Counted from the first letter of the stretch, positions 4,464-35,370 are shown. The stretch: 64,000 bases of DNA from Antedon mediterranea (GCF_964355755.1 NC_092674.1:3906001-3970000), one strand, 5' to 3'. The notes: generated by a model not told the origin, from the letters alone. A program made the numbers and translations.

Positions 4464-6233
4464 TTATCGTTTTTTCTTTTTCTTACTTTTCGGAACATCT
4501 TGACTACAGCTTCTTTTATTTGGGTTAGTTTTTGTTATCAGTTTAGAAGCTACATGGTGCAGATTTATGTCATTAAGATCTTTAATAATTTCTTTCGCAC
4601 CATCAGCAAATACATTCTTTGTTTTTTCAAGATGCATGATTAAAGACCATTGGTCTGTATACGCATTCTGCGGCACTTCATACACATCTCCCACTCGTTT
4701 TGCCTCATCTTTTGAAAGTGCTTTCCCGAGTCCCATCAGTTGTTGTCGATAGGCCGAGAATGACGTGATTTTGCCGTCTTTGTTTGCGTCACTGAGTAGT
4801 TTTACATCCTCTAAAACTCCACGGGTATCTGTCACTTTCACCATGTCGATTAGAACTTTGTAGTTTGTACGCGTAAGATCTCCACAAACCTTCAAAGTAT
4901 CGAACAAGCTGGATACGTATTTGTGTTCTTCTCTAAATTCTCTTGTATAATGTCCTTGAACAGCAGTCTCAGCATGGTTATTTTGTCTCTGTCTTGGTAC
5001 CATTGTGATGTCTTTGACAGCATGACATTAAACTCCTTGGATTCTAACTCTAAAGAAAGTGAACGGATTTATGTTGTGATGTGACGTAACTAATTGGAAC
5101 AGGTTACTTATTGTAGGCCTTTTTGGAGAAATAAATTAAATACTAATACAAATAGGTAGCCCTCTATTCATTATAAAACGTAATTAACTGTAAACGGAAT
5201 GGTAGACTACCTTTAGGTGCTGATGTCACATCTTCGTTCAGATCTGCTAAAACATAAATAAAATGTTGTCATCACTGAATATTTCAAACTTTAAAATAAA
5301 CATAGGCCAACAATAAAAAAAAGTTTAGCAGTAAAATATGAATTATTTAATCAATCTAGTTTACCTTGTGTTGCTGTTGACGTCGATTGTGATTGTTCTC
5401 TAATCTCTATAAGTGTTGACAGATTAGCTGAAATAATAACATTTATATCTAAATAAATAATACATTTCTACCATGCTAAATACACCTTGCATGGAGCAAG
5501 GAACTATTCACATTGCCTCTGGTAGAGAAATTAATTGTTTGAGCACATATCAATCAAAATCAATCAACCAAAATCATTAGTTACTCACCAAATTAGAAAA
5601 AAGTACAACCTACGTCCGTACAAAATATAAAAAATATTCGTTAACAAAAAAGGTGTTCTAGTTATACGTATATAAGTAGATTATGTTAAATTAAAGATAA
5701 ATGTTGTTTTATACACACCTAATTTTTTCTTTGCTGTTGAGTTGAGGTTACCTGCAAACCGTTTTATCTTCACTTCTGTAGAGTCTAATCGTTCCTGTTT
5801 CTCCAGGTGGAATACCAGATCCCAGATATTGTCAAAGCCTTTGTGACTTAGTTTGTAGAAAGCACGTAATTTGCGCAAATCGTCATCTCCCACTGCCATC
5901 AGAGCTTTATACAATGCTTTTCGATAAGGTGAAAGTCCTTTTCCCCTTTTAGCATCGTTGGTGTAGTCTTTTATGGCATCTTTAGCTGACTGCAAATTTG
6001 TCACTTCGGCAATTTCTGATAGAAGGTTTATTTCGGTGTATTTTATGTCACCAGATTCTTGGAGTTTATTGAATAAATCCAACCCATCGATATCTTTACG
6101 GTCTAACAGTGAGAGAGGTAGGAAATCATAAAGAAGAAATCTTAACAAACTGAATTTATCACCTTCATATTCGTTATTAAGATCTCTAAAAAATTCTGTA
6201 AAGCGATCTTCATGTGCCTGTTCATCTCCCATT
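4464..6233 (-). CDS. Multi-DED gene copy A; +5 frameshift in the last exon (predicted 256-aa two-DED product, or a young pseudogene)
   Basis: Exons 6233-5719 (tandem DED, ATG at 6232), 5427-5365, 5246-5211 and 5049-4464, all AG/GT and phase 1. DED hallmarks LRFLLYD, LDLFNKL..GDI, NLLSEI and LSPYRKALY (cf. caspase-8 ISAYRVMLY). At ~4931-4940 TCTAAATTC replaces the TGCA of copy C, giving TGA at 4894-4892. Confidence 0.8.
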
Positions 6234-6762
6234 CTGTCTGATAATAAAATAAATTGATAAAAGTGATAAGTTGGCTAGAAAAATATCTGAATCACCTTGT
6301 ACGAGGGTTGCTAGTCCTGGTAATGGTGCAAGACCTTCCGAATTTACTATTAATGCAATTTCTGCCAGATAGAAACCAAATTTACACATAAACTTTGTCT
6401 ATTTAGAAGGAATTCTGGATATAATTTGCCAGTATGTCACTTTGTTATCTAGTATTGGAACTGCCACGCCTATTATAAAATATACAAAAGAGCTTACGGT
6501 AGCACATTGTCCCATAGATTTATCCAAAAGATAGATACTAATTTGTTTCAAAATAATATTGTTGAGATATGCATTAACTGGCTGTGCGTAACGACGAATG
6601 GGGAGCTTATGTCATTGAAATATGCAACAGGCACAATTAAATAAGTCATTATTTCTTTTATTAATTAGGCCTAGTATTATCCTTGGTTATAATGCTGAAT
6701 TATCTTTTGTCGTTCGGGTACAAACTACAGTCTCTCAACTACTAGTTTTATTTATTTCTTAC

Positions 6763-6810
6763 CTTATAGTTGTTTATCCAACACAACCAAAAAGAAAATG
6801 GCGCCCTTCA
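6763..6810 (-). promoter_or_regulatory. Putative short non-coding first exon / core promoter of copy A (YY1-like motif plus splice donor)
   Basis: Minus-strand GCGCCATTTT (6804-6795) followed ~30 nt later by AAG|GTAAG (donor at 6762). Same layout at 17420 and 53105. Confidence 0.55.
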
Positions 6811-6859
6811 GCTATTTTTAATATGCTAGCCTACATTAACAATAGGTACGTCGATATTA

Positions 6860-10134: not shown

Positions 10135-11756
10135 TTATCGTTTTTTCTTTTTCTTACTTTTCGAAACATCTGGACTACAGCTTCTTTTATTTGTTGTTAT
10201 TAGTTTAGAAGCTACATGGTGTAGACCTATATCTTTAAGGTCTTTAATAATTTCTTTCGCACCATCAGCAAATACATTCAGACCATTGATCTGTATACGC
10301 ATTCTTCGACACTTCATACACATCTCCCACTCGTTTTGCTTCATCTTTTGAAAGTGCTTTCCCGAGTCCCATCAGTTGTTATCGATAGGCCGAGAATGAT
10401 GTGATTTTGCCGTCTTTGTTTGCGTTACTGAGTAGTTTCACATCTTCTACAACTCCACGGGTATCTGTCACTTTCACCATATAAGATCTCCACAAACCGT
10501 CAAGGCATCGAACAAGCTGGATACGTCTTTCTGTTCTTCTGCATCTTGTATAATGTCCCTGAACAGCAGTCTCAGCATGGTTATTTTGTCTCTGTTTTGG
10601 TACCGTTGTGATGTCTTTGACAGCATGACATTAAACTCCTTGGATTCTAACTTTAAAGAAAGAGAACGGATTTATGTTGTGATGTGACATAACTAATTGG
10701 CACAGGTTACTTATTGTAGGCCTATATTGGAGAAATAAATTAAATACTAATACGAATAGGTATCCCTCTATTCATTATAAACGTAATTAAAACTGTTAAA
10801 CGGAATGGTAGACTACCTTTAGGTGCTGATGTCACATCTTCGTTCAGATCTGCTAAAACAAAAATAAAATGTTGTTATCACTGAATATTTCAAATTTTAA
10901 AATAAACATAGGCCTACAATAAAAAAAGTTTACCTTGTGTTGCTGTTGACATCGATTGTGATTGTTCTCTAGGGTCTGTAAGTTTTGACAGATTAGCTGA
11001 AATAATAACATTTATATCTAAATAAATAATACATTTCTGTCATGCTAAATACACCTTGCATGAAGCAAGGAAATATTCACATTGCTTCTGGTAGAGAAAT
11101 TAATTGTTTGAGCACATATCAATCAAAATCAATCAACCAAAATCATTAATTACTCACCAAATTAGAAAAAAAGTACAACGTACTGTACAAAATATAAAAA
11201 ATACGCGTTACCAAAAGAGGTGTTCTTACACGAGTTGTACGTTCAGATAACTGAATTATGTTAAATTTAAGATAAATGTTGTTTTATACACACCTATAGT
11301 TTTTTTGCTGTTGAGTTGAGGTTACTTGCAAACCGTTTTATCTTCACTTCTAATCGTCCCTGGTTCTCCAGGTGGAATACCAGATCCCAGATATTGTCAA
11401 AGCCTTTGTGACTTAGTTTGTAGACATCAGAGCTTCATACAATGCTCTTCGATAAGGCGAAAGTCCTTTTTCTCCTTTTAGGAGCATATTTGGTGTACTC
11501 ATCTATTACATTTTTGCTAATTGCAAATGTGTCATTTCTGACAGAAGGTGTATTTCGGTAACATTTATGTAGCCAGACTCTTTGAGTTCATTGAATAAAT
11601 CAAACTTAGTGATATCTTTACGGTCTAACATTGAGAGAGGTAGGACATCATAAAAAAGGAATCTTAACAATAGAAATTTATCACCAGGATATACGTCATT
11701 AAGATCTTTAAGAAATTCTTTAAAGCGATCTTCGTTTTCCTGTTCATTTTGCATTT
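10135..11756 (-). pseudogene. Multi-DED gene copy B, pseudogene
   Basis: Exon homologues 11756-11294, 10996-10934, 10852-10817 and 10652-10135. Several deletions and frameshifts in both DED exons; last-exon acceptor AG>AA; CAA>TAA at 10381-10379; still ends SKSKKKKKR. Confidence 0.88.
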
Positions 11757-12354
11757 CTGTTAAAACAATGGAAAGTGATGACAAACTTTATAAGGTTAAT
11801 ACATCTAGGCATACGAGTCATTGATGAAAAGTTGCCAGTCTGGTGATGTGTAAAGGTGAAATGTCTGGAATGTTATAACATTATCATTAAGATAACGCTT
11901 TAAGGCAAGGGGCATCTTATAATCAGCCGATTATGCTACTGAATCGGGTCTTATAATAATATAATCGAGTTTATAACCCATTGTAAATCTAACAATATCC
12001 ACAATAAGCCAACCCCCGCAAGCTCAAGGAGGTAAAGTATTACCAGCATATAAGTCATTTAGATTTCGAAATCCTATATAGCGATCTTCGTTGTCCTGTT
12101 CATTTTCCATTTCTGTTAGAACAGTGGAAAGTGATGGTAAACTTTATGAATTGGTTAATACATCTAGTACGAGTCATTGATTAGAGTTTCCAGTCTGGCG
12201 ATGTGTAAAGGTGAGTCTGCAATGTTATAACATTATCATTAAGATAACACTTTAAGGCAAGGGGCATCTTATAATAATATAATCGAGTTTATAACCCATT
12301 GTAAAATTAACAATGTCCACAATAAGTCAACCAGCAAGCGCAAGGAGGTAAAGT
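11725..12354. repeat. Local tandem duplication (~11725-12040 vs ~12081-12354) of the start of the copy B DED exon plus upstream intron
   Basis: GCGATCTTCGTT.TCCTGTTCATTTT.CATTTCTGTT ... CAAGGAGGTAAAGTA occurs twice. Confidence 0.85.
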
Positions 12355-12627: not shown

Positions 12628-14600
12628 TAATAATAATAATAATAATAATAATAAGCTTTATTTAATCACGGATACTTAACTCAACTAAAAGTTGTTTTTC
12701 AGTAAGACCGTGCTCAATGGAAAACACCAACAATAATAAATGTAAAAAGCAGATATCAAATCAAATAATAAAACAATTACAGAAGCAAAAAACAAATGCA
12801 GATAATAAAACAATTACAATGAAATAAAATGAAACAAGGATACACTTACTAACTAAAAAATTAAATAATACACTACATTTAAATAAAGCTACATGAAATT
12901 AGCAGTTAACAGTTTCTTAAAAAGAGAGACAGAGTTCACATTTTTAATATCTTCATGTAGTTCATTCCAAACCTTGGCACCTCTATATGATAAGCTACGT
13001 TTTTTGTTGTTTGTTTTTGGTTTTGGTACTATTAAATTTGGCTTAGTTCTAATATTATAGTAATTGTTTTTGATATTGAACTTATTTAATAAATATGGAG
13101 GTGCAAGGTTGTTCATAATCTTAAACATATCAATAGCTTCATTTATATATAATCTTTCATCTAAGTTCATTCAATTTAGACTTTGTAGAGCTTGAGTACT
13201 AGAGTCGGTTTGAGATTTGTTTGTAATAACTTTTGCTGCGCGATTTTGAAGAACTTGTAGTGTTTTACTTTGAGTTATATTTGAACGTCCACAAACAACA
13301 TGGCAATACTCAAGATGAGGAGCCATAAGTGATTTGTATAGTTTGCATTGAATTTCTTTTGGAAATATATTATTAGTCTTTTTTAAGTAGTACAAGCTCT
13401 GAAAAGCCTTAGATTTTACATTATCGATTTGTGAGCACCAAGAAAGATTATTATCTAATATCACACCAAGATGTTTACATTTATTTACACGAGAGATTGG
13501 TTCTCCATCTATGTTAATGTTGACTTGTAAGTCAAGTAAGTAAGATAGTTTACTTAACCTGTCTCGTTCCAATTAACATAAATTCAGTTTTTTTAATATT
13601 TAGGCTAAGTTTGTTGCATATGAGCCATCTTTTAAGACACAATAAGTCAGAATTTATTGTTTCAGTAAGGTTATTAATATTATTGGAAGTGTAGTATATG
13701 GCAGTGTCATCAGCATACATAGAAACAGAGCATTTATTTACAGCATTAGGCAAGTCATTAACATAAAGGAGAAACATTAATGGTCCTAGGATGGACCCCT
13801 AAGGAATTCCACATATACTGTGACTTTCATCAGAAAAATCACCATTTACATTGGTTATATGTACACGATTATGCAGGTAGTTTTCAAACCACTGAATAAC
13901 ATTTGAATGAAAATTGAAAGATCTTAGTTTATTGATAAGAATACTGTGATTTACTGTATCAAAAGCCTTTTTCAAGTCTATCATTACTAACCCAATATAA
14001 TTTCCAGTGTCAATTGCTTCTAGCCAGGTCTCTGTGATATTAAGCAATGCAGTCGTAGTTGAGTAGCCTGGTCTAAACCCAGACTGATTTTCATATAGCA
14101 TTTTGTTTAGATTTAGGAAATCATAAACTTGTTTATGTACGTCTTGTTTATTAACATATTTAAAAGTTAATTTGTCGTTAGTATTATTTACATCATTAGT
14201 AAAGTTAGAGAGTTGATTAGTAGATTGAATACTTTGAGCTAATGTTGGACCCACATTGGCAAAATATTTATTTAATACATTTGCAATATCTTTAGAATTA
14301 GTTACTTCATCATTTTCTTCATCATTTGTGGTTTTAATACTTGTTATATTCATGCTTTTAGTTTTGCCAGGAATAATTAATTTAATATTTTCCCATATCT
14401 TTTTCTGATCTTTAGTATTGAGTTGTTCAGAAAAATAGTTCTTCTTACTTTTTCGAAGTTCATAATTTACTTGATTTCTTAATTTTCTATATTCGGGCCA
14501 AAGCTGAGACCTATTTTTCTTATTTATTCGTCTTTTTAATGCATCTCTTTTTCTGATGAGAAGTATTACATTTTTAGTTAGCCACGGACTGTTTTTTTGT
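12628..14600 (-). mobile_element. 5'-truncated, degraded LINE (CR1/L2 group) RT region with (TTA)n tail
   Basis: ORF pieces 14353-13799, 13777-13550, 13572-13171 and 13170-12889 carry QSGFRPGYST, IDLKKAFDTV, MYADDT and KHLGV; AATAAA then a (TTA)n tail at ~12628-12662. Confidence 0.93.
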
Positions 14601-14859
14601 ATTAAGTAAGTCAGTTTTAAATTTAAAAATGTTTATAGTTCCTATTTATTAATTAATTTAATTCAGTTAACTTTAAATGATACTTTTTATTTATTTATGT
14701 TCTAGTTAATTGACTACGGACTTGTGCCGTCAACTGATTGTTAAATTGTTTTTTTGTTGGTTTTTTTTTAGAGGATTGATTGTAAAATTATTTATGTTTA
14801 CATACGTTAGGTAATTATTATTTTAGTTCGTGCTTGAATAAAATTTTTCGTAAACTATT

Positions 14860-15575
14860 AAGCACTGCTTTATTACAATGTACATTTGACTATTCTGCCT
14901 CGGCATGGTAGAATCTTAAACATAAATTACAAACTGTCCAAAACAAGATGGCACGTATTATTTTAAATGTTGGTCCGAGGTCTCACATAGGTACCAAAGA
15001 GCTTTCCGATTTGGGGGTTCTTAATGTCAGCCTCAGAAATAAGTTTTTAAGATTAAATTATGTTCACAAAAGTCGCTATAATTTTAATACGCCTTCTTTC
15101 CTTAAGGATAACTTTTGGTTAATTTCTGATCTTCATAACCATTTCACCAGGGGTACAACATTTAATTTTGTCACTCCTAAGGCTACTGGCGTTAACGATT
15201 CGACTTTTTATTTTTTAGGTATCCGTGACTGGAACAGGCTCCCCAATTCACTTAAATCAATACAAAATAATGCAACCTTCAAAATAAAACTTAAAGAATA
15301 TTTTAATAATGAACAGCTTGGAATATCAGTTTGATTAAGTTATTTTATAATATTGTTTTTTGATGCTATCTTGTTTTATATGTATTTTCTTGTTTTTCCA
15401 TTTTTACTGCGTCCAACTTAATCATATATTGTACTAGGCCCAACCACTCACTTTTTCAGCGACGGACTCGTTTGAGCCTCTATGTCATTAATCGATCAAT
15501 CAAATAGTACCTTTTTTCCTTTATATTTGTTTTGTTAATGAACATATCATGTTGATGTTTTGGTCGAAATAAATG
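14860..15575 (+). mobile_element. LINE 3' fragment (ORF2 C-terminus and 3' UTR)
   Basis: FDYSASAW...KLQTVQNKMARIIL...WNRLPNSLKSI...FKIKLK, typical of L2/CR1-type ORF2 ends; AATAAA near 15568. Confidence 0.85.
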
Positions 15576-15616: not shown

Positions 15617-15907
15617 TTACGATAGCTTTACGATAACTTGAAAGTGTTCATCCCGTTCAGCCAGTACGTTTGTCACTTCGGTAATTTCTGATAGAAGGTT
15701 CACTTCAGGGTGTTTTATAATGTTCTTCGCTTGAATTTTATTGAATAAATCAAATGCAAAAACATCTTTACTGGTTAACAGTGATTCGTGTAGATAGTCA
15801 CAAAGAAGAAATCTTAACCACCGAAACTTTTCACCTTTATATTCGTCACTAAGATTCCTAAGGAATTCTGTATATTGGTCTTCGTTTTCGTACGGTTCAT
15901 TTGCCAT
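15617..15907 (-). pseudogene. Truncated paralogous exon retaining only the first DED
   Basis: MANEPYENEDQYTEFLRNLSDEYKGEKFRWLRFLLCD...FDLFNKIQ...NLLSEITEVTN aligns to DED1 of A/B/C; homology stops after VTN; no AG acceptor directly before the ATG. Confidence 0.75.
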
Positions 15908-17419
15908 GTCAGTTAGATAGTGTATAGTTATAAAGTGTATATTGCCTCAAAGTTTTACCGAGGCAAGCATGAATTGCTGAAAAGACGATCTATGCAAGGC
16001 TAATTTTCTAAAAAAAGGATGGGATAACCAATCGAAAAGTGAGGGAAAGGCCTACTTTCCGTAATGTGAAGCTTTATATCGATGGTTGTTTGAATATGTA
16101 ATACACATACTTCGGAGAAAGTCATGGATAATGCTTTTACCAATATATTTGATCATCATCACAGTAAATCAGGTGTTATATTGCCGATGTCCCTGAACAC
16201 TATTCTATCCCAAAATTACAAAATCTAAATCCTGTTCTCTTAAATCTTAAAAACGCATCATTCATACAATACTATTATGATTATCTTTCTCAATGTATCT
16301 ATTTTATAAAACCCACGAAAATGGAGCCGTAAGATAAAAAGAAGAATAACTTGGTATTAAAGGACACCCGTAAAACTAGCTCTAAAAAAGAAAGACCCGT
16401 TGTAAGACCAGGGAAAATATGGATTAAAATAATACAAAATGATTTGAAAAATGTACTAAACTACACAACATACTTCAGACACACCTGGCCCCAACAGAAA
16501 TAATGGCATGAAATAATAATAATGATTTGAACTCGACACTTTGACGAGTTCGGGTTATCCGCGGAAAGGCAACATACACATACGTTAAACTATATGAACG
16601 TCGACAATTATTATGCCATCCTATGACATGAATTAAATAAAGTGCTGAATATTTTGTGTCATAAAGCATAACAGTATTTACGGAATACACTGTATATGTT
16701 ATATACAGTGTTATAGATTAAATTACGAGACCCGTCTTTTAATTCAATTTTAAAGATGATTGTTCATCATCATGTAACATAAAGATAGCAATTTCAGAAA
16801 AAAAGCGCATACTTACGCTACGCGAACATATTTTTATTAAACCAAAGTCAGGTGGCCGAGTTACAGCTGAACTGCTTTCGCAGTTTTATAGATCTGCCAG
16901 ACACAAAAAATGAGCAGAGGCATTTTTTGACAATAACAATCGCTCTCTGTGGGGGAGAGAGCGATAGCCTTAAATCGCTCTACAGAGAGCGATAACCAAA
17001 AAAAAAAGGAGTTTGGTTTTCGTCCTATATATTAATAGGGACTAGGGAAAAACTAGGGAAAACACGACTAGGCTATGGGCGTGCCATGGATACGCTCGTT
17101 TGGTTTCAGTTTTTGTTGCTAAATTCATAGTTTTTAACAGAAATTCGGACGATTTTCGCTATAAAATTTGGGTTTTCATAATTATTTAACAATTGTACTC
17201 TCGTTTGGTAGGTATTTGCAACATTCTGAGTCTCGTTTGTTTCCGTTTGGTGTTTAGTAGAGGGAGGGGTTGTTATAAAACAAAATATAATTAATAGTCG
17301 AAAATAAGTGCTCTCTTAATATAGCCTATAATATTTATTTTCTTCCGGTTCTGGTTAGGTATAGGTTATATTAAATGGTAAATCTTATAAGACTATATCA
17401 AGATTTTTTCCGATCTTAC

Positions 17420-17630
17420 CTTTTTTCCTCCCGAAACGAACCAAACAAAATGGCGGCGTCCGATAGGTTTAAATTATATGCTTTAGGCCTATACCTTACA
17501 ATAAAGGTACGACGCCAATTGATTTTCTGGGGAAACCACAATATAACCGAACGGTTTATGTATAGATATGGAACTCGAAACAAACAATGGCAATAGAACG
17601 AGCGTGCCGAATAATCGATTTTGCATAACA
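17420..17630 (-). promoter_or_regulatory. Putative first exon / promoter paralogue (YY1 motif, donor, conserved upstream block)
   Basis: GCCGCCATTTT (17457-17447) and AAG|GTAAG donor at 17419; ~200 bp alignable with 53105-53310. Confidence 0.55.
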
Positions 17631-18411: not shown

Positions 18412-19130
18412 ACCGCCCGGTGATATACTGAAATTTAATTAATTAATTTGAAACGATAAAGATGAGGAAATCTGTGAGAATGAGAAAAAGTCGCCTCAAC
18501 CGAGACTCGAACTCGGACCGCCTGCTTGATATGCAGATGTCCTAACCATTAGACCACTGGGGCTTTCATGGTATTGTTCGAACTCGATTGGATAACGACT
18601 CTTTAACATTCTCGGCGTGGTACGGCGGAACAGCACTAGTCCTCAGTTGTACGCACGCGCAACAGAGATCAAATTGATACGCCCTCATCTTTCAGTATTT
18701 TTATTCACGAGGCGGGATCTCCGAAGAGATACTTTTATATATATAAACACAAGAGGCAAAGAACATTAATTCTAAACCGCCCGGTGATATACTGAAATTT
18801 AATTAATTAATTTGAAACGATAAAGATGAGGAAATCTGTGAGAATGAGAAAAAGTCTCCCCAACCGAGACTCGAACTCGGACCGCCTGCTTGATATGCAG
18901 ATGTCCTAACCATTAGACCACTGGGGCTTTCATGGTATTGTTCGAACTCGATTGGATAACGACTCTTTAACATTCTCGGCGTCGTACGGTGGAACAGCAC
19001 TAGTCCTCAGTTGTACGCACGCGCAACAGAGATCAAATTGATACGCCCTCATCTTTCAGTATTTTTATTCACGAGGCGGGATCTCCGAAGAGATACTTAT
19101 ATATATATAAACACAATAGGCAAAGAACAC
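18412..19130 (-). repeat. Two tandem 364-bp units each containing a tRNA-like sequence; inverted junction copy at ~19370-19437 and a third diverged unit at ~19615-19820
   Basis: ACCGCCCGGTGATATACTGAAA at 18412 and 18776; the units are near-identical. Confidence 0.93.
18492..18563 (-). pseudogene. tRNA-like sequence (Asp-like, ATC at the anticodon position) inside the repeat unit; second copy at 18856-18927
   Basis: GCCCCAG TGGTCTAATGG (A box) ... TCTGC-ATATCAA-GCAGG ... GAGTTCGAGTC (B box) ... TTGAGGC, followed by TTTTT. The anticodon loop is non-canonical. Confidence 0.7.

Positions 19131-19143: not shown

Positions 19144-19368
<225 letters not shown>

Positions 19369-24356: not shown

Positions 24357-24358
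<2 letters not shown>

Positions 24359-24424
<66 letters not shown>
24359..24424. repeat. (TA)n microsatellite
   Basis: Perfect TA run. Confidence 0.99.
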
Positions 24425-24428
<4 letters not shown>

Positions 24429-25661
24429 AAACAGAATATAAATAAAATGATAATAAAGGACAGTCATAGGTCATCTATCATAAAATAATATTTATTTCTA
24501 CAACATGAATATGTCAGTTAATGTAATCTTTACATTGTATAATCATGAATACATTTTTTCGTAATCCCAAAAGAACTATCTGACAGGGTAAAATGTAGGC
24601 CTACTAAAACACATGTTTCACTGATATAACAAAACAACCACAAACTATTACTGATCTGGTGTAAACTAGGCTAAGAAGGAGTCTTATCCTAGTCTACATC
24701 AGATCAAAGTTACAAAGTCACTTGTAGAGTAAACAACAATTACTGATCTAGGATACGGTCCAATAAATAGATTACAAATAATTTGTTTTAGAGAAAAAAT
24801 ATAAAACTGAATGATACTAAGATCAAGACTGAAACAGATTGTACATTCATTATTATTCAAGACTTACTATTTTTTTTTTCAATTATCTATATTCATTATT
24901 ATTATTACACTCCAAAATATTATTAATATATTCAATCTGAGAATCCAACAAGATGGCGCTGTACGACAGTACAATTACGCGTTGCATTACATAAACTATT
25001 TTTATTTAAATTCCTCCAACAGACACAGGATAAGTTGAGGTTATGTATTCTTGATAGTAACTTGATATCCTATTTTGCGTTTAAATCTATAGAATGTTAG
25101 TCCCACTATAAAAACGAAACAAATAACAGATATTGGATCCGAGAAGTTCAATTCAAAATTTAATTCAAATATATATTCACATTGTTTTGTCGTAGGTCCC
25201 TATAACAGCGATTACTATATTTTTGTCTGCCCTTCGTGATAATAATAATGTGATTTTTTTCAGTTTTTTTTTGTTCAGTAGGCCTACTTTCCTTAAATGA
25301 TTAGGCCTAACGTAGGAAAGGAATTAATGAGTAACTACTAATTTATTGATTTGATGATACATATATAGATTGACAGATAAATTGATTTATGTAAAGATTG
25401 CCAAGCCCACTTACCCATCCTAAACAAATACTTTAAAAATAACTACCTAAAAACACCAAAGCAATGTACAAGGACTTTTTACGTTACAATTAATTCCTAA
25501 AGGATGCACTACTTTTATTATGTCAAAAACAATTGATGGAAGATTGTGGGAGAGAAACCCGGACACCACCCTTTGTCTGGCTTCATACTTGTTTATTCCA
25601 ACCCCAATGCTCAAACATCGATATAGTTCCTCCCACGTTTTTAGGCCTACCTAATCAGTTC

Positions 25662-27424
25662 TTAACGTTTTTTCTTTTTCTTACTTTTCGGAACATCTAG
25701 ACTATAGCTTCTCTTATTTGTTGTTATCAGTTTAGAAGCTACATGGTGTAGACCTAAATCTTTAAGGTCTTTAACTAATTCTTTCGCACCATCAGCAAAT
25801 ACATTCTTTGTTTTTTCAAGATGCATGATTAAAGACCATTGATCTGTATACGCATTCTGTGGCACTTCATACACACTTCCCACTCGTTTTGCTTCATCTT
25901 TCGAAAGTGCTTTCCCGAGTCCCATCAGTTGTTGTCGATAGGCCGAAAATGATGTAATTTCACCGTCTTTGTTTGCGTCACTGAGTAGTTTCACATCCTC
26001 TACAACTCCACGAGTATCTGTCACTTTCACCATGTCGATTAGAACTTTGTAGTTTGTACGCGTAAGATCTCCACAAACCTTCAAAGTATCGAACAAGCTG
26101 GATACGTATTTGTGTTCTTCTGCATCTTGTATAATGTCCTTGAACAGCAGTCTCAGCATGGTTATTTTGTCTCTGTCTTGGTACCATTGTGATGTCTTTG
26201 ACAGCATGACATTAAACTCCTTGGATTCTAACTCTAAAGAAAGTGAACGGATTTATGTTGTGATGTGACGTAACTAATTGGAACAGGTTACTTATTGTAG
26301 GCCTATATTGGAGAAATAAATTAAATACTAATACAAATAGGTAGCCCTCTATTCATTATAAACGTAATTAAAACTGTTAAACAGAATGGTTAGACTACCT
26401 TTAAGTGCTGATGTCACATCTTCGTTCAGATCTGCTAAAACAAAAATAAAATCTTGTCATCACTGAATATTTAAAGTTTAAAATAAACATGGGCCTACAA
26501 TAAAAAAAAAATAACAGTAAAATATGAATTATTTTTTCAATCTAGTTTACCTTGTGCTGCTGTTGACGTCGATTGTGATTGTTCTTTAGTCACTGTAAGT
26601 TTTGACAGATTACCTGAAATAATAATACATTTATATATAAATAACTATTTTTTTAAAATAAATTTCTTACACGCTAAATACGCCTTGCATGAAGCAAGGA
26701 AATATCATATTGCCTCTGGTAAATATGTTAATTGTTTGAGCACATCAATCAAAATCAGTCAACCAAAATCATTAGTTACCCACCAAATTATATAAAAAGT
26801 ACAAAATATAAAAATAATCGTTACCAAAAGAGGTGTTCTTACATACACGAGTTATACGTACAGATAACTGAATTATGTTAAATTAAAGATAAATATTGTT
26901 TTATACACACCTAATTTTTTCTTTGCTGTTGAGTTAAGGTTACTTGCAAACCGTTTTATCTTCACTTTTGTAGAGTCTAATCGTCCATGTTTCTCCAGGT
27001 GGAATACCAGATCCCAGATATTGTCAAAGCCTTTGTGACCTAGTTTGTAGGAAGCACGTAGTTTGCGCAGATCATCATCTCCAACTGCCATCAGAGCTTC
27101 ATACAATGCTTTTCGATAAGGTGAAAGTCCCTTTCCCTTTTTAGCATCGTTGGTGTAGTCTTTTATGACATCTTTATCTGACTGCAAATTTGTCACTTCG
27201 GCAATTTCTGATAGAAGGTTTATTTTGGTGTATCTTATGTCCCCCGATTCTTGGAGTTTATAAAATAAATCCAACCCATCGATACCTTTAAAGTCTAACA
27301 GTGAGAGGGGTATATAATCATAAAGAAGAAATCTTAACAATAGGAATTTATCACCTTCATATTCGTTACTAAGATCTCTAAGAAATTCTGCAAAGCGATC
27401 TTTGTTTTCTTGTTCATCTCCCAT
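25662..27424 (-). CDS. Multi-DED gene copy C, intact: four divergent DEDs, Ser/Thr-rich linker and C-terminal polybasic NLS-like tail (~394 aa)
   Basis: Coding exons 27424-26911 (514 nt), 26613-26551 (63), 26434-26399 (36) and 26233-25662 (572) total 1185 nt, open, with canonical phase-1 AG/GT junctions. Both large exons show the tandem-DED pattern with the S-x-YR start of the second DED; ends PKSKKKKKR*. Confidence 0.88.
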
Positions 27425-27639
27425 TCTGTCGGATAGTAAAATAAAGTGATAAAAATGATAAGATGATCAGGATCAGGATTGTAGTCATAGTGGTGGTGCA
27501 AGAGCGGTGTACAGGAATTATGGATATAATTTGCCAGTTTGTTATCTAGTATTGGAACTGCCATGCCTATTATGAAATATACAAAAGACGGTTATAGAAT
27601 ATTTGGCCAACTATTAGGAAGTAGCAGGTTTATCAAATT

Positions 27640-27785
27640 GCTATGATTGATTTGTAGATGATTGCAATCCCACGGTGTCTGTCACCAACTCTTGAGACAT
27701 TCAGAAAGGTTCGAATAACCCGATGAAGTAAATTCCGCAGGATCTTCTTCACCAAGCCAAGCTTCAATCAACCAAAATATTTATT
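27640..27785 (-). mobile_element. Degraded LINE endonuclease remnant
   Basis: Frameshifted translation LIEAWLGEEDPAEFTSSGY / FLNVSRVGDRHRGIAIIYKS resembles the APE-endonuclease ETWL...GY...R..GG.AI motif. Confidence 0.5.
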
Positions 27786-28097
27786 GCAGCAACCACGTAG
27801 GCCTATCAATCACTTGGGAACAATATTGAAAATTGTAGGCCTATAGGCTTTATCAACTATTTATGATGATATTGTATACTCTATAATAACTTTTTCATGC
27901 AGTAACAAGTTTATTTTGTATGTTTGCGTTTATGTACACACTAAACAAAGCAAGACATGCTTTAGATGGTGACCGTAAACAATGTACCTAGTTTAGTTCC
28001 TATTCTTATTCACACATAATTTGAGGAATCCTTATTATCGGTCGTGGAGCTAAAGTCTAACCGGAAACACCCATAGTTAGTCATAGATTCTAAATAG

Positions 28098-28172: not shown

Positions 28173-29221
28173 TTATAACCTTTTTGTCGGTAAACAATAT
28201 AATGTTGTGCTCGAGCACTAACTAAATTTAATTAGTAAACAGAGTTACGTTACGTGGTTAAAAACAGTATGTATAGGCCTACAAACTTTCTATGCCATTG
28301 AGTAAACAGATTCTAGCAGTTCTTTTCGCGATTTACTCAATTTTGTTCTTACATAATTTATATTATATAACTTTTGTTTTATGGCCTCAAAGTAGATATG
28401 CCTACGTATTTTGATTTTAGGTTCATGTTGTAGCCTTTTTTAGGATTTACAACTGTACATTACCTTTGCTCTATGCTTGATTTGTGCAAATCTGTTGATT
28501 GAGTTTTCCTCGTCAATACAGTGGTAACTTTGTTCATGCAAAAATAATAAAAATCACAGTACAGTACAGTAGAAAAACACACTGCTCAAAATATAAAAAA
28601 TATGAAATATTTTATTATAATTAAATACAATTTTCATCACAAATTGCAAATAACAAAAATATATAGTCCCATAAAAATGTTGATGAATGATAAAATACAA
28701 CTACTGCTACTACTTTTTTGGGATTTGGAAACCAGTGACTATACAGTTCAGGTTTGCTAACTTTTATGGCAAACTGATTGATTATAAATACAGTCAATCA
28801 TACCAGGGAAGAGTTAAATTAAAATTGTAATTTAACTCTTCCCCGATCATACAGTTTTTCTACTTGACTTGATAAAATCTTCTGCTAAGCAAGTCAGCAA
28901 TCCAAGCGGTATTTAAAGATGAAACATTCATATTAATTAATCTGGAACGTAGAAGGCTTTAAAAAACCAGTGAACAAAATGTGAAAGACAGTGTAGAAGA
29001 ATTGTCAGCATACCTATGCAACAAATAAATAAGGCTGACATTAAGTGTGGCATAGGAGGACTTTCTTAGTAGCAACAGTGTTGGAATGTTTCCAATCAGT
29101 AGGTAGATGTAGTAGAAGTTTGTAAAGACGAAATAATGATACGGGATAAATTCAAATGAGAACGTTTTAATAAAACGAGCAGAAATTAAGGATGCTTTTT
29201 GTTCAGAATCCGAAGACTCAC

Positions 29222-32200
29222 CTGTTTCTGCTTTAACAAGTTTCATCTCTTCTCTATCACTGATCGGCAATTCTTCTGTTTTGCCGCCTATGTAAAAGGA
29301 ACAAACAAATACCATCATATTAGTGTTAAAAATTGAACATGTACAGTACTTTTATTAATAGATTCTCGTACAAATATGAGGAAAATGAAATTCAAGAATA
29401 GGCCTAAGTGCAAGGCCATACAAAAAAAAACAAAATGAAAAAGTAACAGAAATGAGAAAATATAAAAATAAACATTAATTTAAAAAGCTAAACTAAGCCC
29501 AGCCGGACACCAACCCGGTATTTCAGGGATAACTCTAAAATCAAATTTATGCAGTTCAACTAGATTTAAATATATTAATATATTAAGATCATCTGAAATG
29601 TTATTCCAGAGCTTACTGCCATAAAATGAAACACTGTCTGTTTTAAATTTAAGAATGCTAAAGTTTCTACTATTAGCTTTTCTAGTATTATAGTTTATTT
29701 TCTGTGATATGAAAACGGTCATAAAGATATAGAGGAGCATTTAAACTAAAGATTTTATATACATAATTATTGCTTCTGTATTGTACATTTCTTTGATGAA
29801 GATTTAGGTTAAGGTTTTGTAAGGCTTGTGTGCTAGAGTCATACCGTGAAGACCTAGTAATAATCTTGGCAGAACGGTTTTGCAGAATTTGGAGTTTCTT
29901 AAAGCATTTTTTACTAATGGCAATGGCCCAGACAACACTGTAGAGCTATTAGTGTTTATATAGGTCACATTGAATTTTTTTAGAAACAAGTGTGCTTGCC
30001 TTTCTTAAATAATATAAAATCCTGGTAAAAGGTATTTTGCCTTTACATGATTTTTCCACGTATGGTTTTCATCCATTTCCAACCCAAAGTGTTTACAGCA
30101 TTTTACTCTTTTAAGAATTTGATTGTCAATTTTAATATTACAATCAATTCAGCTCCTCCTCCCCTTATATCAGCCAAACAATTGTTAGTTTTTACTTGTA
30201 ATGGCAGTAAAATGTAGTAAACGATGTAGACACCTTCAAGTGTGGCAAGAAGGACTTTCTTAGTAGCAATTCAGTGTTGGAATGTTTCCAATCAGTAGGT
30301 AGGTGTAGTAGAAGTTTGAAAAGACGAAATAACGATACAGGATAAATTCAAATGAGAAGGTTGTAATAAAACGAGCAGAAATTATATCTTATGTCTGGTC
30401 CACTTGCTTTCCTACATTTCATTTTATTTTATTTAGGATGTTCACAACTTCCCAAGGTTTTACATGACGTGGCTTAAGAGCAGATAAGAAAATATGTAAA
30501 GATTTTCTATCAAAGGGCTTACGATCTTATATTACTACTGTACAACGTACAGACAGCGTCATCAGTATCTTTGTCAATGTTTAAATTCAAACAGTATTTC
30601 TAAACATTTTGGCCAATCATAATGCGTATACTTCTGTACCAATCAATGGATGAAAGTGTTGAATTTTGACTACATAGAAAAATTGTTTTGCTTTACAAAT
30701 AAGGTGATTGATTATTCAATTCCTCGTATAAGGAAAAAACACACTTTAACGTTAAAGTTAACATTTACGGGCTCGTGCGAAAACTCCCTATAGACATTTA
30801 AAAGAAAAAGTAAGGTCCCAAGTATGGAACCATGGGGTATCTGAAACACACTATTACGAACATTTGAGGTTATACCAAATATTTGTTACATGACATCTAT
30901 AGTTGAGGTAATTCTCAAACTAAAATTACACCTTCACTAAAAGAAAAATATTTCAGCTTTGTAAGTAAAATAATATGGTCCATGGTATCAAAAGCCTTCT
31001 TAAGATCTAAAGATCTAAACTAGACCAGTGTATTTCCCAGAATCAATCCATCCATTTATCCAATGTTCTGTAATATCCATTAAGAAAGCTTTAATACTCA
31101 GTACTGAATATCTCATCTCTGTCATTCTAGCCACGTTGATAATGAAAGTAAAGGATGAATAAAAAATAAATAAATAAAATATAAATATTTAAAATTTATT
31201 TTTGTAATCAACTAAAATAAATGAAATGACAATGAAAATCATATATTCCTTTATAGCTAAAGCTATATCTAGTTATTAATTTCATTTTGAATTCTTGTAT
31301 TTTACTTCCTTGGATGTAACATATATACATGAGAAGAATCTAGAGACTCACCTGTTTCTGATTTTACAAGTTCTTTCTCTTCTCTAACAATACCCCATTC
31401 ATTATCCTCGAGGAAGTTGGCCAAATCAAATGTTTCACCCGATTCCTCTATAAAGAAATAAAAATTCAACTGATAAATATTTATATTAGTCTCTTTATCA
31501 ATTTGCACAACCATTTTTTTTTCTGTTCCTGATATTACCATGTTTTTATAAAAATAAAATTTAAATAGGTGTGTAAAGAGTGTAAAAAACACATCTTACC
31601 CAAATCAAACACCTGTAGTAATCAACATGTTATTAATTGAAAGTGACTTGGATGATCTGGTGGTACAAGGCCTACTGTAGTTTTCACATTTTGTGATGTG
31701 AAATGAGCGATAGTTTTGCAAAAAAATTTTTTTTTAATATTCATCTTTTGTACAATGTTTAGTCTTCATCTAATTAATTTGAAGTGGTTTGGATGAGTCT
31801 CATTAAATAAGCCATACATTGTGTACACTTCATGCTTACGTTGCACAGGGACCTATTTCTCACCTTCTAGCTTATGTAGTGACTTTTCAAATTCATGTTT
31901 ATCAATGTGTGTCGTCCACTTTTTAAGAAATTCTTGCCCATCTTCCTTTGCAACTAATATGCCTGCTAAATCTTCAAGAAGTTTGCGGCTTAGATGCAGT
32001 TTCCAAAGATTCACAAGGGCATATGGATCGATGACAGATAAATAGAACATTACACTTCCGAATACTATATCATTTAGTTGAAAGCCAATGCGACGAAAGC
32101 ACTGATAACAACTCTTAAAAAATGGCTGCTTCTTATCACAAGGTTGTGGTGCCAATTCTGACAGTTGAGTTATTTCGAAAGGTGGTAGAATATTCTTGGT

Positions 32201-34252
32201 ATTTCTTTGTGCTGATAGACCAATGTCAGTTTTTGGAGATGTTCGATCTTCAGCGGCAGGATTTTCCAGTTTTACTGTTAATAGTATGTCAGCACCTTTA
32301 AAATTACAAATAATGTTAAATACACTAACTAGATTTTAACTCAGATCGGGTGATTTCTCTATCACGTTGGCATTTACAGTATTTGAAAGGTTCCTAGTGC
32401 CAATAAATGAACTGCACATCCTTACACAATACATGTTAATTGACCTTAAACGACCATTGAAGTCCATAATGGTTGTAATTATTATGACATTTTGAGACTT
32501 AAAAATTGTAAGATAATAACTCTTGCATTTCTTACAAATTGAAAAAAAAAAGATAGGAAAAACCTAATGTTTCAGTGTTCACAGATGCCCTATTTCACTT
32601 TGGTAGTATTCCTACATGGTACAATGTGTTGTTACAATTACTATTACTGTACCAAAAAAAAATGTTTACTCCAAATTTATACTATTTTCGGAACACAAAA
32701 TAATATATCCATAGTGCGCAAATTCGCACAATTACCTTTGGTAAGAGGCTTCTCCGGTATTCCTAGTTGTCGCAAAGTTTGAATAAATTGTTCAAGTTTT
32801 TCTCTTTCTTCACAGATAATTGTTTTTTGTTCTAGATCCATTATCAGATGCCAATTATCTTCATAATTCTTTGGAGGATCATTATATGCCTGATTAATTT
32901 TGTCCAACTCATCTGTTTTCAATGCATGTCCAAGATCTAGAATTCGTTGTCTAAAATGAGTAAATGTTGATATTGGTTTTTCTTTTGCGATAGGGAAAAA
33001 GATTGCACCAAACTGTTTTGTTACCTTTATGGTATCATGAAGAATTGTAAGATTTGTTGAACTTAGATATCTAGAAGAAATCAATTCATCCAGTAATTCT
33101 TTTGTTTTATTTGCGTTATCCAAGTTACAATCTTCAATATGATCCTGATACAAAACTTTCAGCATCCTTAGAGGCCTCTTTCTATCATACCAAGTTGAGA
33201 CGGTGACTAGAGTTTCTTCAAAACCAACATCAGACATTGCTATAAAAAATCAAAATGAATTACCAATATTGTATCTGAGAAACAGATCAGGTTAAAATTT
33301 TTTACGAATATTTCTTATCTTCTTAAAGATGTATTGTCCCCCTGAAAAAATAATTATTGACAATTTTTGTTGTTGAATATGCCATTTTAATGTCAAATAA
33401 TACCGGTAGGTATCCAATTTGATCCAAAATTGCTGCCAGCCAATGGATTTTTGGTTGAATTTAACCATTTATTTAGTCATTTTATAAGTAATGAATAACT
33501 TTATTAAAACTACAAAATGGCCTATATTCAAAATCTAATTTAATTAATCTTCATTGTTTTTTTGGGGGGACACATTTTTTCATACATTATAATTTACTGT
33601 ATGTAAAAAAAAATAAAATATCAGAAATTATAATGTTTTACTCAAATATGAATATGAAAGAAATAAATGTTTATTTGATTTGAATAATAAATTATTTATT
33701 ATTATTTATTTATTTATTTTTAAATAAACACATACCTAAGCCCAATAGAATATTCTTTGCTCGAGGTCCAAGACACTTGGCAAATCTCTGTATTGTGTCT
33801 GTATCCTTTGCATCTAATTTTGTAGTACGCTCAAGTTCGAACACTACATCCCATATATTGTCAAACTTGAGGTGCTTTATCTCATAGTATGAAATAACAC
33901 AATTTACGCCTTCTGAGCAAACTAGTATCAAGGCCTCATACAGACGTTTTCGATAAGACGATAACTTTTCTCTATCTGTATTTTGCACATGGTTGCCATC
34001 CATATACTGAGTAATTAGATCTTCAGCACCTCTTTTATTGGATACTTTGGCAACCTCCAACAAAAGGCCTACATCATGAGGTGTAATATTTAATTCATTT
34101 AATAAATCATGTGCACGAGACTTTGGAGAGCTAAGATCTCCTATTGGTACATGGTCGAATAGGAGGAATTTCAACTTAAGGTAATTTTGACCCTCATAGA
34201 ATTTACTAATTTCTCTTTTTAAGTCTCTAAACTTATCTTCAAGATTAGCCAT
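29222..34252 (-). CDS. Multi-DED gene copy D: tandem DED + tandem DED + TRADD-N-like domain + two acidic mini-exons; 3' end unresolved
   Basis: Coding exons 34252-33736 (517 nt; acceptor at 34273, in-frame TAA upstream of the ATG), 33239-32736 (504), 32295-31864 (432), 31447-31352 (96) and 29287-29222 (66); all AG/GT, phase 1, open when joined. Confidence 0.82.
29420..30150 (-). mobile_element. Degraded LINE 3' fragment in a gene D intron
   Basis: Remnant motifs KHFGLEMDENHTWKNH and YNTRKAN...SFYGSKLWNNI. Confidence 0.65.
31864..32295 (-). CDS. Exon of gene D encoding a TRADD-N-like domain
   Basis: GFQLNDIVFGSVMFYLSVIDPYALVNLWKLHLSRKLLEDLAGILV matches the G-S-h-h-h...AL..LW....SG.L...L...LV signature of TRADD-like N-terminal domains; acceptor ttttaaag|, donor G|gtgaga. 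Confidence 0.68.
33327..33574. mobile_element. Short Kolobok-type derivative related to 20439-23284, in a gene D intron
   Basis: TTAA|AGATGTATTGTCCCCCTG ... TTTTGGGGGGACA; the right end is decayed. Confidence 0.72.
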
Positions 34253-35370
34253 CTCGATGAATTAATTTGTTTCCTGCAAAAACAAAATGGAATATAACTA
34301 TATTTATAAATGTTTTTGAATTGAATGAAAAACATTTTCATTGGTTGAATAAACAGTATAGAAATTACCGTACAATATGTTTACTGGTAAAAGAGTAAGT
34401 AAGTACAACGTTAATATGACTGTCACTTTTATTTATAATTTAAGTTATCAGTTACGTTACGATAGTTTTACAGTAAAATAATAATTAATTAGTAGGCGAA
34501 ATGCAGTGTGAGGCCCTTAAGGCCGCCCATACGTATGACGTATGGAGTTGGAGAAAATGAGAAACAACGTGCGTAGACCGCCATATTGTTCGTTTGACCA
34601 TGGATAAAAGAATAGAAGGATATGCATCGACGGTGACATCAAACGATTTTACAACGCGCTTGCCTATACTAAAGCACTGCTGCCAATCAAACAAACACGT
34701 TCATTGAACTCCGTGTCTCTAACCGCGGCCCTCTGTAAAACGCTGCGAATCAACTGTTACATTTTTTGAGACCAAAACGTAATCATGTAGAAATCGTATG
34801 CGCAGTCTGAATGTTCTATTGACATGTCTGCGTCGATGATTAATTGACAACAAAAATATATTGCTGAATAATTCTGTTTTAGTTTCATCACAATCGGACT
34901 ACGAAAAGTTCACTTTCTTACGACTGGTAATTTTAAGTAGTTGGTAATATTATTAATAAAATATGCAAATTTTATAGTTGAATTATCATTATTTGCCTGC
35001 CATCTTCTGTCATTAAAAATTGCGTTAATCTATAGAATATTAAATTATGCATTTGACCATGTATGTTGTTAGCGTGGCCGGTGTTCACCCATACAACAAT
35101 CGTGCTTTTAATATATGGCTAAGCAGTGGTTTCTTCATAAATCTCCTTAATTATCGATGTGATTATATTTAAATTGTAGTGCCTGGTGATTGGCTAGTGG
35201 TTATGTCATCCACATCACATCCAATCACCGGGTCTAATTGAATGAAAACAGCGATCCCTGATCCGGGATTGGCTGGCTATGTATAGTTGCGATACGTTAC
35301 CTAGCGGTCGTTTTGAAAAGTACACGCAGGGCAAACTTAATCACGAACAAACGAAGTACAGTACCTATTA

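Follow-up and report, generated by a model that had tools for sequence, protein, structure and literature searches.

A stretch of 64,000 nucleotides of the Antedon mediterranea genome, here called the window, carries a cluster of large exons that resemble death effector domains (DED). The cluster raises the question of whether these exons belong to real genes and what DED proteins without an enzyme could do in a crinoid. To our knowledge, characterised DED signalling comprises a handful of vertebrate and viral proteins.

Cluster layout and locus C

Analysis of the window localized five minus-strand loci (A, B, a relic, C, and D) at the positions given in an earlier note on this DNA and revealed a sixth copy, a 78-bp stub derived from a partial duplication of the 5' end of B. 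As the note had described, A, B, C, and D share one order, in which a type I exon is followed by a type II exon. The features are as follows.

4464..6232, minus strand: locus A, exons 6232-5719, 5427-5365, 5243-5211, and 5049-4464
10135..11754, minus strand: locus B, pseudogene copy of C/A
12038..12115, minus strand: stub, duplicated 5' end of the B type I exon
15620..15907, minus strand: relic of a type I exon in which just the first DED remains; DNA 74% identical to C
25662..26233, minus strand: last exon of C, with type II tandem DED, basic tail, and stop codon
26399..26431, minus strand: linker exon of C, 33 nt; an alternative acceptor gives one extra Ala
26551..26613, minus strand: linker exon of C, 63 nt; splice joints in runs X8 and X9
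26911..27425, minus strand: type I tandem DED exon of C (ATG at 27424), Pfam DED E 3.8e-5
28464..28527, minus strand: exon of 64 nt, phase 1 to 2, in the RefSeq D+C model
29222..29287, minus strand: linker exon, 66 nt, phase 1-1, resembling the 3' part of the exon at 31352..31447 at 84%
31352..31447, minus strand: acidic linker exon, 96 nt, phase 1-1 (RefSeq model), low pLDDT
31864..32295, minus strand: probable TRADD-N exon, 432 nt, phase 1-1, residues 341-484 of protein P0001
32736..33239, minus strand: type II tandem DED exon of D, phase 1-1, Pfam DED E 1.2e-7, AG/GT ends
33736..34252, minus strand: type I tandem DED exon of D, start codon at 34252, 100% identical to P0001 residues 1-172

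Only C (or D+C) is intact, and four of the six copies are broken or truncated. Intact, truncated, and dead copies lie side by side, in keeping with the birth-and-death pattern suggested earlier, and retroelement ORFs flank and interrupt the cluster. A tblastn search of the 64-kb window with 166 family proteins gave no match to the domains that accompany DEDs elsewhere in the family (caspase, NACHT, Roc, and others). The claim that the window lacks a protease was thereby upheld, and an origin of the loci as fragments of one long NLR gene was ruled out by the lack of NACHT in the window. These results indicate that the loci form a real cluster of crinoid genes for caspase-8-like tandem DEDs (tDEDs) without an enzyme part.

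Splicing of C through GT-AG sites yielded an open protein of 393 amino acids. An acceptor 3 nt upstream, used in RefSeq isoform X1, adds one Ala and yields the 394 amino acids of the earlier note, so that the open frame claimed there stood. The tail contains KSKKKKKR, presumably NLS-like. All three C-type introns were joined in contigs of two public runs (X8 and X9); none of the listed sequencing runs is recorded as RNA. The joint table shows 15 of the 19 joints for the C-type region, of which four correspond to the three introns, one spans two introns, and ten match none and are probably divergent paralogs. Because they differ from C at many positions, the X8 and X9 contigs represent the C-type family and not locus C itself. 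They show type I-to-type II splicing, and those from X8 run past the C-type stop into the 3' UTR. In run X1, the summed contig depth of the C exons was about 5 to 6 times that of D, depth being no measure of copy number.

Ordinary caspase-8 or cFLIP prodomain exons were ruled out because the protease is absent and a stop and 3' UTR follow the type II exon. An orthologue of caspase-8/10 or cFLIP-L would carry a C-terminal caspase or pseudo-caspase domain, and C stops in the type II exon. With respect to NLR genes, NACHT and Roc matches number zero in 64 kb, and X8 covers the C-type stop and 3' UTR. Death-fold domains only, with no enzyme, were found in C, in A, and in the paralog P0005. An intact 398-residue paralog with two isoforms lies on the same chromosome.

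In A, the type II exon is frameshifted by a net 5-nt insertion near 4940. The resulting product of 255 amino acids has one intact type I module and part of a DED and is identical to RefSeq protein P0159. Frameshifting deletions affect both large exons of B, with 1 and 37 nt lost from type I and 28 and 26 nt from type II. Comparison of A with C gave dN/dS values of 0.48 (p 0.04) and 0.23 (p<0.001), which, from one pair of sequences, support purifying selection between them. Identity in intron 3 reaches 98.8%, which points to gene conversion. A and B, like the relics and one further copy on the same chromosome, would be young duplicates of the C unit in a continuing process of gain and loss.

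Tandem-DED fold and the extent of locus D

Comparison of a profile of five window exons with the caspase-8 tDED gave an E value of 3e-6 over positions 8-163 of 171. Caspase-8 was the best match in both sequence and structure, including the S-x-Y-R linker into DED2. Via the predicted P0001 model, residues 769-941 (C type II) superposed on the caspase-8 tDED (4zbw) with Z 16.9 and rmsd 2.7 over 170 aligned residues, and MC159 (Z 14.7) and cFLIP-S (Z 13.8) also matched. The halves of the modules matched the FADD DED (Z 11.5, residues 568-655) and the PEA-15 DED (Z 11.3), so that the proposed check for six-helix death folds came out positive in the predicted model for both halves of a module. The top Foldseek rows were caspase-8, cFLIP, and vFLIP tDEDs throughout (TM mostly 0.66-0.72), and the C type I exon fell into DED clusters of the ESM Atlas (0.90). 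P0001 scored 47 bits with Pfam DED against a curated cut-off of 35.9, and single window exons scored 14.7 to 32.4 bits, below the cut-off. The P0001 model is an alignment-based fold with pLDDT 78 overall and pTM 0.46, with inter-module packing not confident and linkers predicted to be disordered; a single-sequence fold reached only pLDDT 36. The folding alignment held zero aligned relatives for the C type I module and 13 for the TRADD-N-like domain. A two-copy complex prediction for C residues 565-936 scored 0.01, which is evidence for neither side. In the predicted structures, the product of each large exon is a caspase-8-like tandem DED, with two six-helix death folds as a unit.

The D type I exon (predicted pLDDT about 93) has an in-frame stop upstream of its ATG, and the D type II exon (pLDDT about 92) ends in a GT donor. 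D had been listed as a further paralog of the cluster; its tandem-DED order agrees with this, but it is no recent copy of A, B, or C, since its identity to C is 38% (type I) and 33% (type II) and its modules belong to different subclades. D is intact despite long divergence from C. From the D type II exon, the frame runs through the 432-nt exon and three small exons into C. The ten spliced exons correspond letter for letter to RefSeq XP_071950031.1, with 953 amino acids and eight DEDs, and eight of the nine junctions are in phase 1. According to this gene model, D is predicted to continue into C as one eight-DED protein.

There is a substantial chance, somewhat short of even, that D and C are instead two genes, in which case the 953-residue protein would stem from minor read-through or from two gene models merged into one. 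A and P0005 share their start Met with C and are annotated as stand-alone genes, and the putative join depends on the exon at 28464..28527, the sole asymmetric internal exon, which puts it in frame. Beyond the exon flank, the upstream similarity of A and C extends over only 84 bp, and the region upstream of C is therefore untied to a shared promoter either way. Contig cover from X8 and X9 over D and the linker exons is little or none, and repeats dominate the splice joints recorded there. An informative loose end at 27425 was not present in the contigs over 25500-28050, a span that ends short of the 28464..28527 exon. Against two genes, all ten exons are AG/GT-ended and stop-free, D would meet a stop ahead of the join only through intron retention, and RefSeq contains two full-length D+C isoforms. 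The same sandwich of tDED, TRADD-N, and tDED also occurs in P0010, P0014, P0015, and P0056.

The middle exon of D encodes a conserved non-DED domain, probably TRADD-N. Its predicted order is beta-alpha-beta-beta-alpha-beta with a disordered insert at residues 355-398, a succession of strands and helices that would fit the two-layer alpha+beta RRM/ACT-like fold. A ninth DED was ruled out by this predicted alpha/beta fold. The [GA][SC] uS motif in the beta2-beta3 turn is present in 19 of 20 family domains, here as GS at 420-421 before a predicted strand. Weak PF20694 matches below the cut-off (E 0.006 to 0.07) fell on the homologous stretch in 4 of 16 relatives and none on the window exon. TRADD-N structures were absent from the top rows of both fold searches, where a whole-protein query filled the lists with death folds; a PDB profile search (alignment A5) returned DED chains and one unrelated row without TRADD-N, both results being compatible with a TRADD-N fold. 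The ESM Atlas gave no usable match for the middle exon.

The crinoid tandem-DED family

The window genes represent a small part of a large family. It comprises at least 205 clusters at E<=1e-10 and 278 at E<=1e-3, and all 26 named members are crinoid. Word-based homolog searches returned 1, 7, and 11 proteins only and are insensitive for this family. A partner census covered the best 150 hits; Pfam scans were run on 121 of these, and the other 29 have at most 281 amino acids each. Among the best 150, the partners were NACHT (24), Roc and/or COR (15), B-box/RING/NHL (5), kinase (3), and TIR (2), with one each of caspase, RIG-I helicase, Rel, USP, URGCP GTPase, ubiquitin, fibrinogen, and TPR-NTPase. 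Many hits without a partner may be partial gene models. The TRADD-N-like domain is present in 16 of the 150, most members being without it; these relatives are flanked by LRR, Roc, B-box, RING-NHL, and ubiquitin.

The proteins carry one to five modules, and such arrays also occur on an NLR (P0003). Fewer than 120 residues lie outside the module envelopes in 16 of 40 multi-module hits; DED-only arrays therefore recur. The earlier idea of a self-contained quadruple-DED system was retained in part: tandem DEDs without a protease do exist, but arrays range from one to five modules, and the system is not self-contained because the same module is found on NLRs, ROCO proteins, kinases, a RIG-I-like helicase, Rel, and a caspase in crinoid proteomes.

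A tree of 211 modules separated type I from type II with SH-aLRT 100, at 20-25% identity between types. In the same tree, the caspase P0030 has its two modules placed within groups of NLR modules (SH-aLRT 97.5 and 99.8), which a shared address of sensor and effector would predict. The window modules are only 33-47% identical to the nearest sensor or effector module, compared with 97% identity of CARD16 to caspase-1 (PMC3775265); therefore, no direct parent target was identified.

At the F122-equivalent column, mapped from the HMM alignment of the window profile to caspase-8, 2 of 214 modules have F, neither of them from the window, and 106 have G or A; RxDL occurs anywhere in 5 of 214. The features of caspase-8-type self-polymerisation, the FL motif (F122/L123) and the E/D-RxDL charge triad, are thus both lacking, and with FL and RxDL missing family-wide, the caspase-8 interface rules may not carry over. 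The loss does not tell decoys from active members.

Possible roles and related systems

An immune or cell-death role, as first proposed, is probable. By analogy, we give about an even chance to the window products being enzyme-less multivalent decoys or tuners for tDED-bearing NLRs, ROCO proteins, kinases, and caspases. Sensors and effectors would pair by homotypic tDED contacts, like caspase-8, FADD, and cFLIP, and an enzyme-less protein of two or four modules would occupy or cap such assemblies, as do cFLIP-S, vFLIPs, and CARD-only and pyrin-only proteins. Confinement of each tDED to a single exon with phase-1 ends may explain the spread of the module. Through its probable TRADD-N, D would gain a docking surface of the TRAF type. 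Fast turnover, as described for CARD-only and pyrin-only proteins (COPs/POPs), fits decoys over core adaptors (PMC3775265).

The main rival to the decoy reading, although unlikely, is that types I and II are separate address codes. Proteins with the I-II order would then promote signalling as bridging adaptors, in the manner of ASC or FADD, and connect carriers of type I (kinases, some NLRs, and a large GTPase) with carriers of type II (caspase, ROCO, RIG-I-like, Rel, and TIR proteins). The deep split between the types agrees with this rival, as do the order of the modules (I-then-II in 12 of 150 hits, II-then-I in 1) and the recurrence of stand-alone I-II proteins of 360-430 amino acids at several loci. 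The two modules of C also fall with different partner classes, type I with kinase and NLR modules (SH-aLRT 79.5) and type II with ROCO modules (SH-aLRT 81.7), but supports of 79-82 are moderate, and either type is found on NLR and ROCO proteins. II-II arrays (21 of 150) exceed I-II, and these genes turn over fast, unlike core adaptors, which are usually few and stable. The fixed I-then-II order fits a bridging adaptor at least as well as a decoy. A wider form of this reading, more doubtful again, is that crinoid intracellular immunity was rewired onto a shuffled two-type tDED exon that replaced CARD, PYD, and DD; the window I-II proteins would bridge two channels, and D+C would be an eight-DED hub around a TRAF-docking TRADD-N, assembling without the caspase-8 FL interface. 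Carriers under such rewiring include NLRs, a RIG-I-like receptor, ROCO and large GTPases, kinases, TIR proteins, Rel, and a caspase.

That shuffling left mostly debris in the cluster, namely spare tDED exons copied in a transposon-rich region and with little function, appears improbable. The predominance of broken copies and the retroelements around and inside the cluster favor it, and module ancestry did not track the NACHT partner (29 changes versus 30.6 shuffled, with noisy labels). However, the A-C dN/dS values, the spliced C-type contigs in two coded organisms, the intact 398-residue paralog, and the persistence of D all speak against debris. The least probable reading is a pre-assembled seed, with filaments of caspases or NLRs nucleating on chains of four or eight tethered DEDs. 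High valency per chain, with arrays of up to five modules, including that of NLR P0003, would suit a seed, and caspase-8 lacking FL still makes short filaments when seeded by FADD (PMC11074299). The DED2 FL motif drives caspase-8 self-filamentation, however, and F122G/L123G caspase-8 is monomeric alone (PMC11074299); the near absence of the motif here weakens the nucleator option of the earlier note, as does the unconfident inter-module packing between linkers predicted to be disordered.

Lineage-specific expansions of DED and TRADD-N in marine invertebrates were described by Kaur et al. in 2021 (PMC8195603), with a constant DED(+DED)+TRADD-N core, variable immune effectors, and retrotransposon-rich surroundings. 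The same combination is found here, conditional on the TRADD-N assignment. The reported architectures include DED+DED+TRADD-N in coral and sea cucumber, DEDx3+TRADD-N+PNPase in sponge, and GT4+TRADD-N+DEDx4 in amphioxus, for which the supplement already catalogues four-DED arrays (PMC8195603). Unlike these expansions, the crinoid unit is a whole tandem DED per exon, of two types, with TRADD-N in a minority of members. In the searched part of the architecture supplement (PMC8195603), no Anneissia row and no eight-DED or DED-only array was found. No description of a crinoid DED/TRADD-N expansion was found in the literature searched.

cFLIP-S/R and the viral FLIPs (MC159 and K13) share the tandem DED, the fold, and the absence of a protease with the window products, but they have one module, whereas the window products have two or four, lack RxDL, and are 14-22% identical to them. 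The caspase-8/10 prodomain is the closest match; the window modules differ by the absent caspase domain, the lost DED2 FL, and one exon per module. COPs/POPs are likewise enzyme-less, lineage-restricted, duplication-born death-fold proteins and provide the model for a decoy role, but they have a single CARD or PYD, and some are near-identical to a neighbouring target (PMC3775265), whereas the window genes are multi-DED, and the window contains no comparable parent. DED-NACHT NLRs and DED-RLRs are reported from amphioxus, sea urchin, cnidarians, sea cucumber, and brachiopods, with DED as the N-terminal connector of intracellular sensors, as in the crinoid family (PMC2575513, PMC8913654, PMC8998645). 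These papers describe DED domains, whereas crinoids have one shared tandem module in one to five copies across NLR, ROCO, RLR, Rel, TIR, kinase, and caspase proteins; the window genes, unlike those sensors, have no sensor domain.

Death-fold shuffling in sessile marine invertebrates is already a known theme. Crinoids are the earliest-branching living echinoderm class, and the literature searched gave no description of their immune repertoire. Two crinoid genomes provide about 200 divergent tandem-DED clusters on most classes of intracellular immune sensor and effector, which opens the immune repertoire of crinoids and offers a natural library for death-fold specificity coding, for tDED assembly without the FL interface, and for the effect of valency (2 to 10 DEDs per chain).

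Gene copies and the D-to-C model

Analysis of the window revealed the following tandem-DED loci, identified by self-comparison and six-frame profile scans, together with retroelements.

Tandem-DED loci and retroelements in the window
1-2300 (left end): LTR-type pol remnant, a retroelement
4464-6232, minus strand: locus A, type I and type II exons
10135-11754, minus strand: locus B, type I and type II exons
12038-12115, minus strand: stub of 78 bp
12889-15334, between B and the relic: LINE remnants
15620-15907, minus strand: relic
25662-27425, minus strand: locus C, type I and type II exons
32736-34252, minus strand: locus D, type I and type II exons
36779-50700: retroelements, namely a BEL/Pao-like gag (DUF1759) and a Gypsy-like element containing a LINE

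Locus C yields a 393-aa product via GT-AG splice sites. In locus A, a net insertion of 5 nt cuts the spliced product to 255 aa, and this product is identical to a second RefSeq protein (P0159). Both large exons of locus B carry frameshifting deletions. By sequence, A, B and C (exon DNA identity, 87-95%) are recent copies of one another, and D is distant from C (protein identity between their modules, 38% and 33%). The single-pair dN/dS values of A versus C, 0.48 for the type I exon (p 0.04) and 0.23 for the type II exon (p<0.001), may be biased by gene conversion because intron 3 is 98.8% identical. That the cluster is debris appears improbable. The basic C-terminal tail resembles a nuclear localization signal.

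A search with the first exon of D matched a single protein, at 100% identity: XP_071950031.1 from Antedon mediterranea (953 aa, "uncharacterized"), which has a 954-aa isoform. The 953-aa protein was rebuilt exactly from ten exons with AG/GT ends throughout, in the order type I, type II, a 432-nt exon, three linkers, type I, two linkers, and type II. The type II exon of D closes with a splice donor and no stop. The cluster described in the earlier note is real and was partly mis-delimited. Eight of the nine junctions are in phase 1; the sole exception involves the 64-nt exon at 28464-28527, which makes the predicted D-to-C join. An alternative is that D and C are two genes and the 953-aa protein is a minor read-through product or a merged model.

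Several further features were observed. In the self-comparison, the two acidic linker exons and part of the next intron proved to be duplicated from one another (29043-29259, 30238-30384, and 31335-31389). A GCCATTTT motif followed by an AG/GTAAGA donor, found by eye, marks candidate non-coding first exons on the minus strand at 6760-6810 (for A) and 17419-17460 (for the relic or B). Two more minus-strand segments, an open stretch of 78 codons with an AG acceptor (21764-22000) and, upstream of it, a segment that resembles an exon and has a GT donor (about 22910-23000), may together represent a small unrelated gene situated between the relic and C. Self-comparison also showed two copies, 96.5% identical and in opposite orientation, of a MITE-like element that is 1.07 kb long and has terminal inverted repeats of 90 bp (35371-36437 and 45770-46858). 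ARAGORN made five tRNA calls, three of them tRNA-Asp(ATC)-like and two of them tRNA-Val(AAC) (18412-19129, 19698-19772, and 61236-61592); the first two sit within a tandem duplication of 364 bp and could represent tRNA-derived SINEs.

Splicing, fold and surface motifs

Two sequencing runs from two organisms and two studies (X8 and X9; none of the runs is recorded as RNA) covered the C exons, with zero depth in bins within introns 1 and 3. Joints were found at all three C introns, with 30 to 55 letters on the shorter side; ten other listed joints correspond to none of the introns. In runs X1 and X5, unlike X8 and X9, the introns were also covered. C-type genes join type I to type II by splicing and end in a 3' UTR. 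Since contigs were placed at 85% likeness and differ from C at many sites, this evidence concerns C-type genes and does not single out locus C.

The Pfam DED model scored single exons under and the whole protein above its cut-off. A profile of five exons matched the caspase-8 tandem DED (tDED) over nearly its full length (E 3e-6). The alignment-based model of the 953-aa protein had a mean pLDDT of 78 and a pTM of 0.46, with disordered linkers; three of the modules reached a pLDDT of roughly 90 or higher, compared with about 75 for the type I module of C. The PDB entries listed by Foldseek for this 953-residue query were all tDEDs, none at E<=0.001. VIA gave Z 16.9 (rmsd 2.7, 170 residues) versus Z <=11.5 for single death folds. 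Because profile, Foldseek and VIA results point to tDEDs, the death fold expected in the earlier note is borne out by prediction.

Of 214 modules, 2 have F and 106 have G or A at the column equivalent to F122 of caspase-8, and 5 contain RxDL. This motif loss is family-wide and does not set the window genes apart. FL mutants of caspase-8 do not self-filament, yet still enter FADD- and cFLIP-containing complexes (PMC11074299). By analogy with these mutants, loss at the FL position makes caspase-8-type self-seeded filaments less likely and partner-seeded assembly possible. That the window proteins are nucleators, a role considered in the earlier note, is the least probable reading.

A wider family and its fusion partners

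A family profile search of 1.84 billion representatives revealed 278 clusters at E<=1e-3, of which 205 remained at 1e-10 and 71 at 1e-30. The window cluster belongs to something wider than the earlier note recognized. Details rest on the best 150 clusters; 128 weaker matches lie outside them. Among these 150, proteins carry one (n=110), two (36), three (1), four (2) or five (1) modules, and the 26 named members comprise 14 from Antedon and 12 from Anneissia japonica, none from a non-crinoid group. Judged from these 26, with 124 others unnamed and the 128 weaker matches beyond the best 150, the family is likely crinoid-specific.

Pfam partners, with labels assigned by hand, were scanned in 121 of the best 150. 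They comprised NACHT (24 proteins), Roc and/or COR (15, three of them weak), B-box/RING/NHL (5), kinase (3, with MAP3K12 among the best PDB relatives), MAM (3), TIR (2), and one each of caspase, RIG-I helicase, Rel, USP, OTU, URGCP GTPase, ubiquitin, fibrinogen, ENTH and TPR-NTPase; 74 had no partner domain. All of these architectures come from gene prediction, and a partner seen just once may reflect a merged model. Outside the window, a RIG-I-like helicase (P0104), a Rel-homology protein (P0083) and a very large inducible GTPase (P0046) bear an N-terminal tandem DED, each as a gene model only. Also outside it are an NLR bearing ten DEDs (P0003), an 803-aa protein of eight DEDs alone (P0004), and eight DEDs followed by a Roc domain (P0006).

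The middle domain, encoded by the 432-nt exon of D, is present in 16 family proteins among the best 150 of 278 clusters. A GS turn in 19 of its 20 copies matches the TRADD-N turn named the uS motif by Kaur et al. (PMC8195603), the predicted strand-helix order agrees with TRADD-N, and PF20694 matched 4 of the 16 relatives weakly. Fold searches with the full-length model gave no structural match for it. The domain is quite probably TRADD-N, as judged from sequence and predicted strand-helix order.

Kaur et al. (2021, PMC8195603) describe how sessile marine invertebrates have expanded and shuffled DED+TRADD-N architectures; among the rows listed are DED+DED+TRADD-N in corals and one sea cucumber and four consecutive DEDs in one amphioxus protein, and crinoid entries may exist beyond those rows. 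DED-NACHT and DED-RLR fusions are published (PMC2575513, PMC8913654, and PMC8998645). Full-text searches, with few subscription journals covered, found no account of a crinoid tDED family.

Module tree and possible roles

A fast IQ-TREE module tree, rooted at the midpoint and with seven proteins excluded as isoforms or cluster members, separated type I (n=63) from type II (n=148) at SH-aLRT 100. One C module grouped with kinase/NLR modules and the other with ROCO modules (support about 80). NACHT-bearing modules were scattered (29 changes versus 30.6 shuffled) and ROCO-bearing modules mildly clustered (13 versus 18.2), with labels blurred by partial gene models. Besides a His-Gly motif and QACQR, the caspase P0030 carries two modules, both of which fell among NLR modules in the tree. 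This Anneissia protein (XP_033126911.1, outside the window; four DEDs; active-site pentapeptide QACQR) draws its modules from two different NLR-module clades and is a candidate effector for particular NLRs.

Beyond what the analysis shows, namely the fold, module types, exon structure, C-type splicing and fusion partners, we infer that sensors would be wired to effectors through homotypic tDED contacts. Phase-1 exons may have eased exon shuffling, and the probable TRADD-N domain could dock a TRAF. That the window proteins serve as bridging adaptors is a tentative and rather unlikely reading. The chances are about even that they act as decoys or tuners; enzyme-less multi-module proteins would then occupy or cap sensor/effector assemblies.
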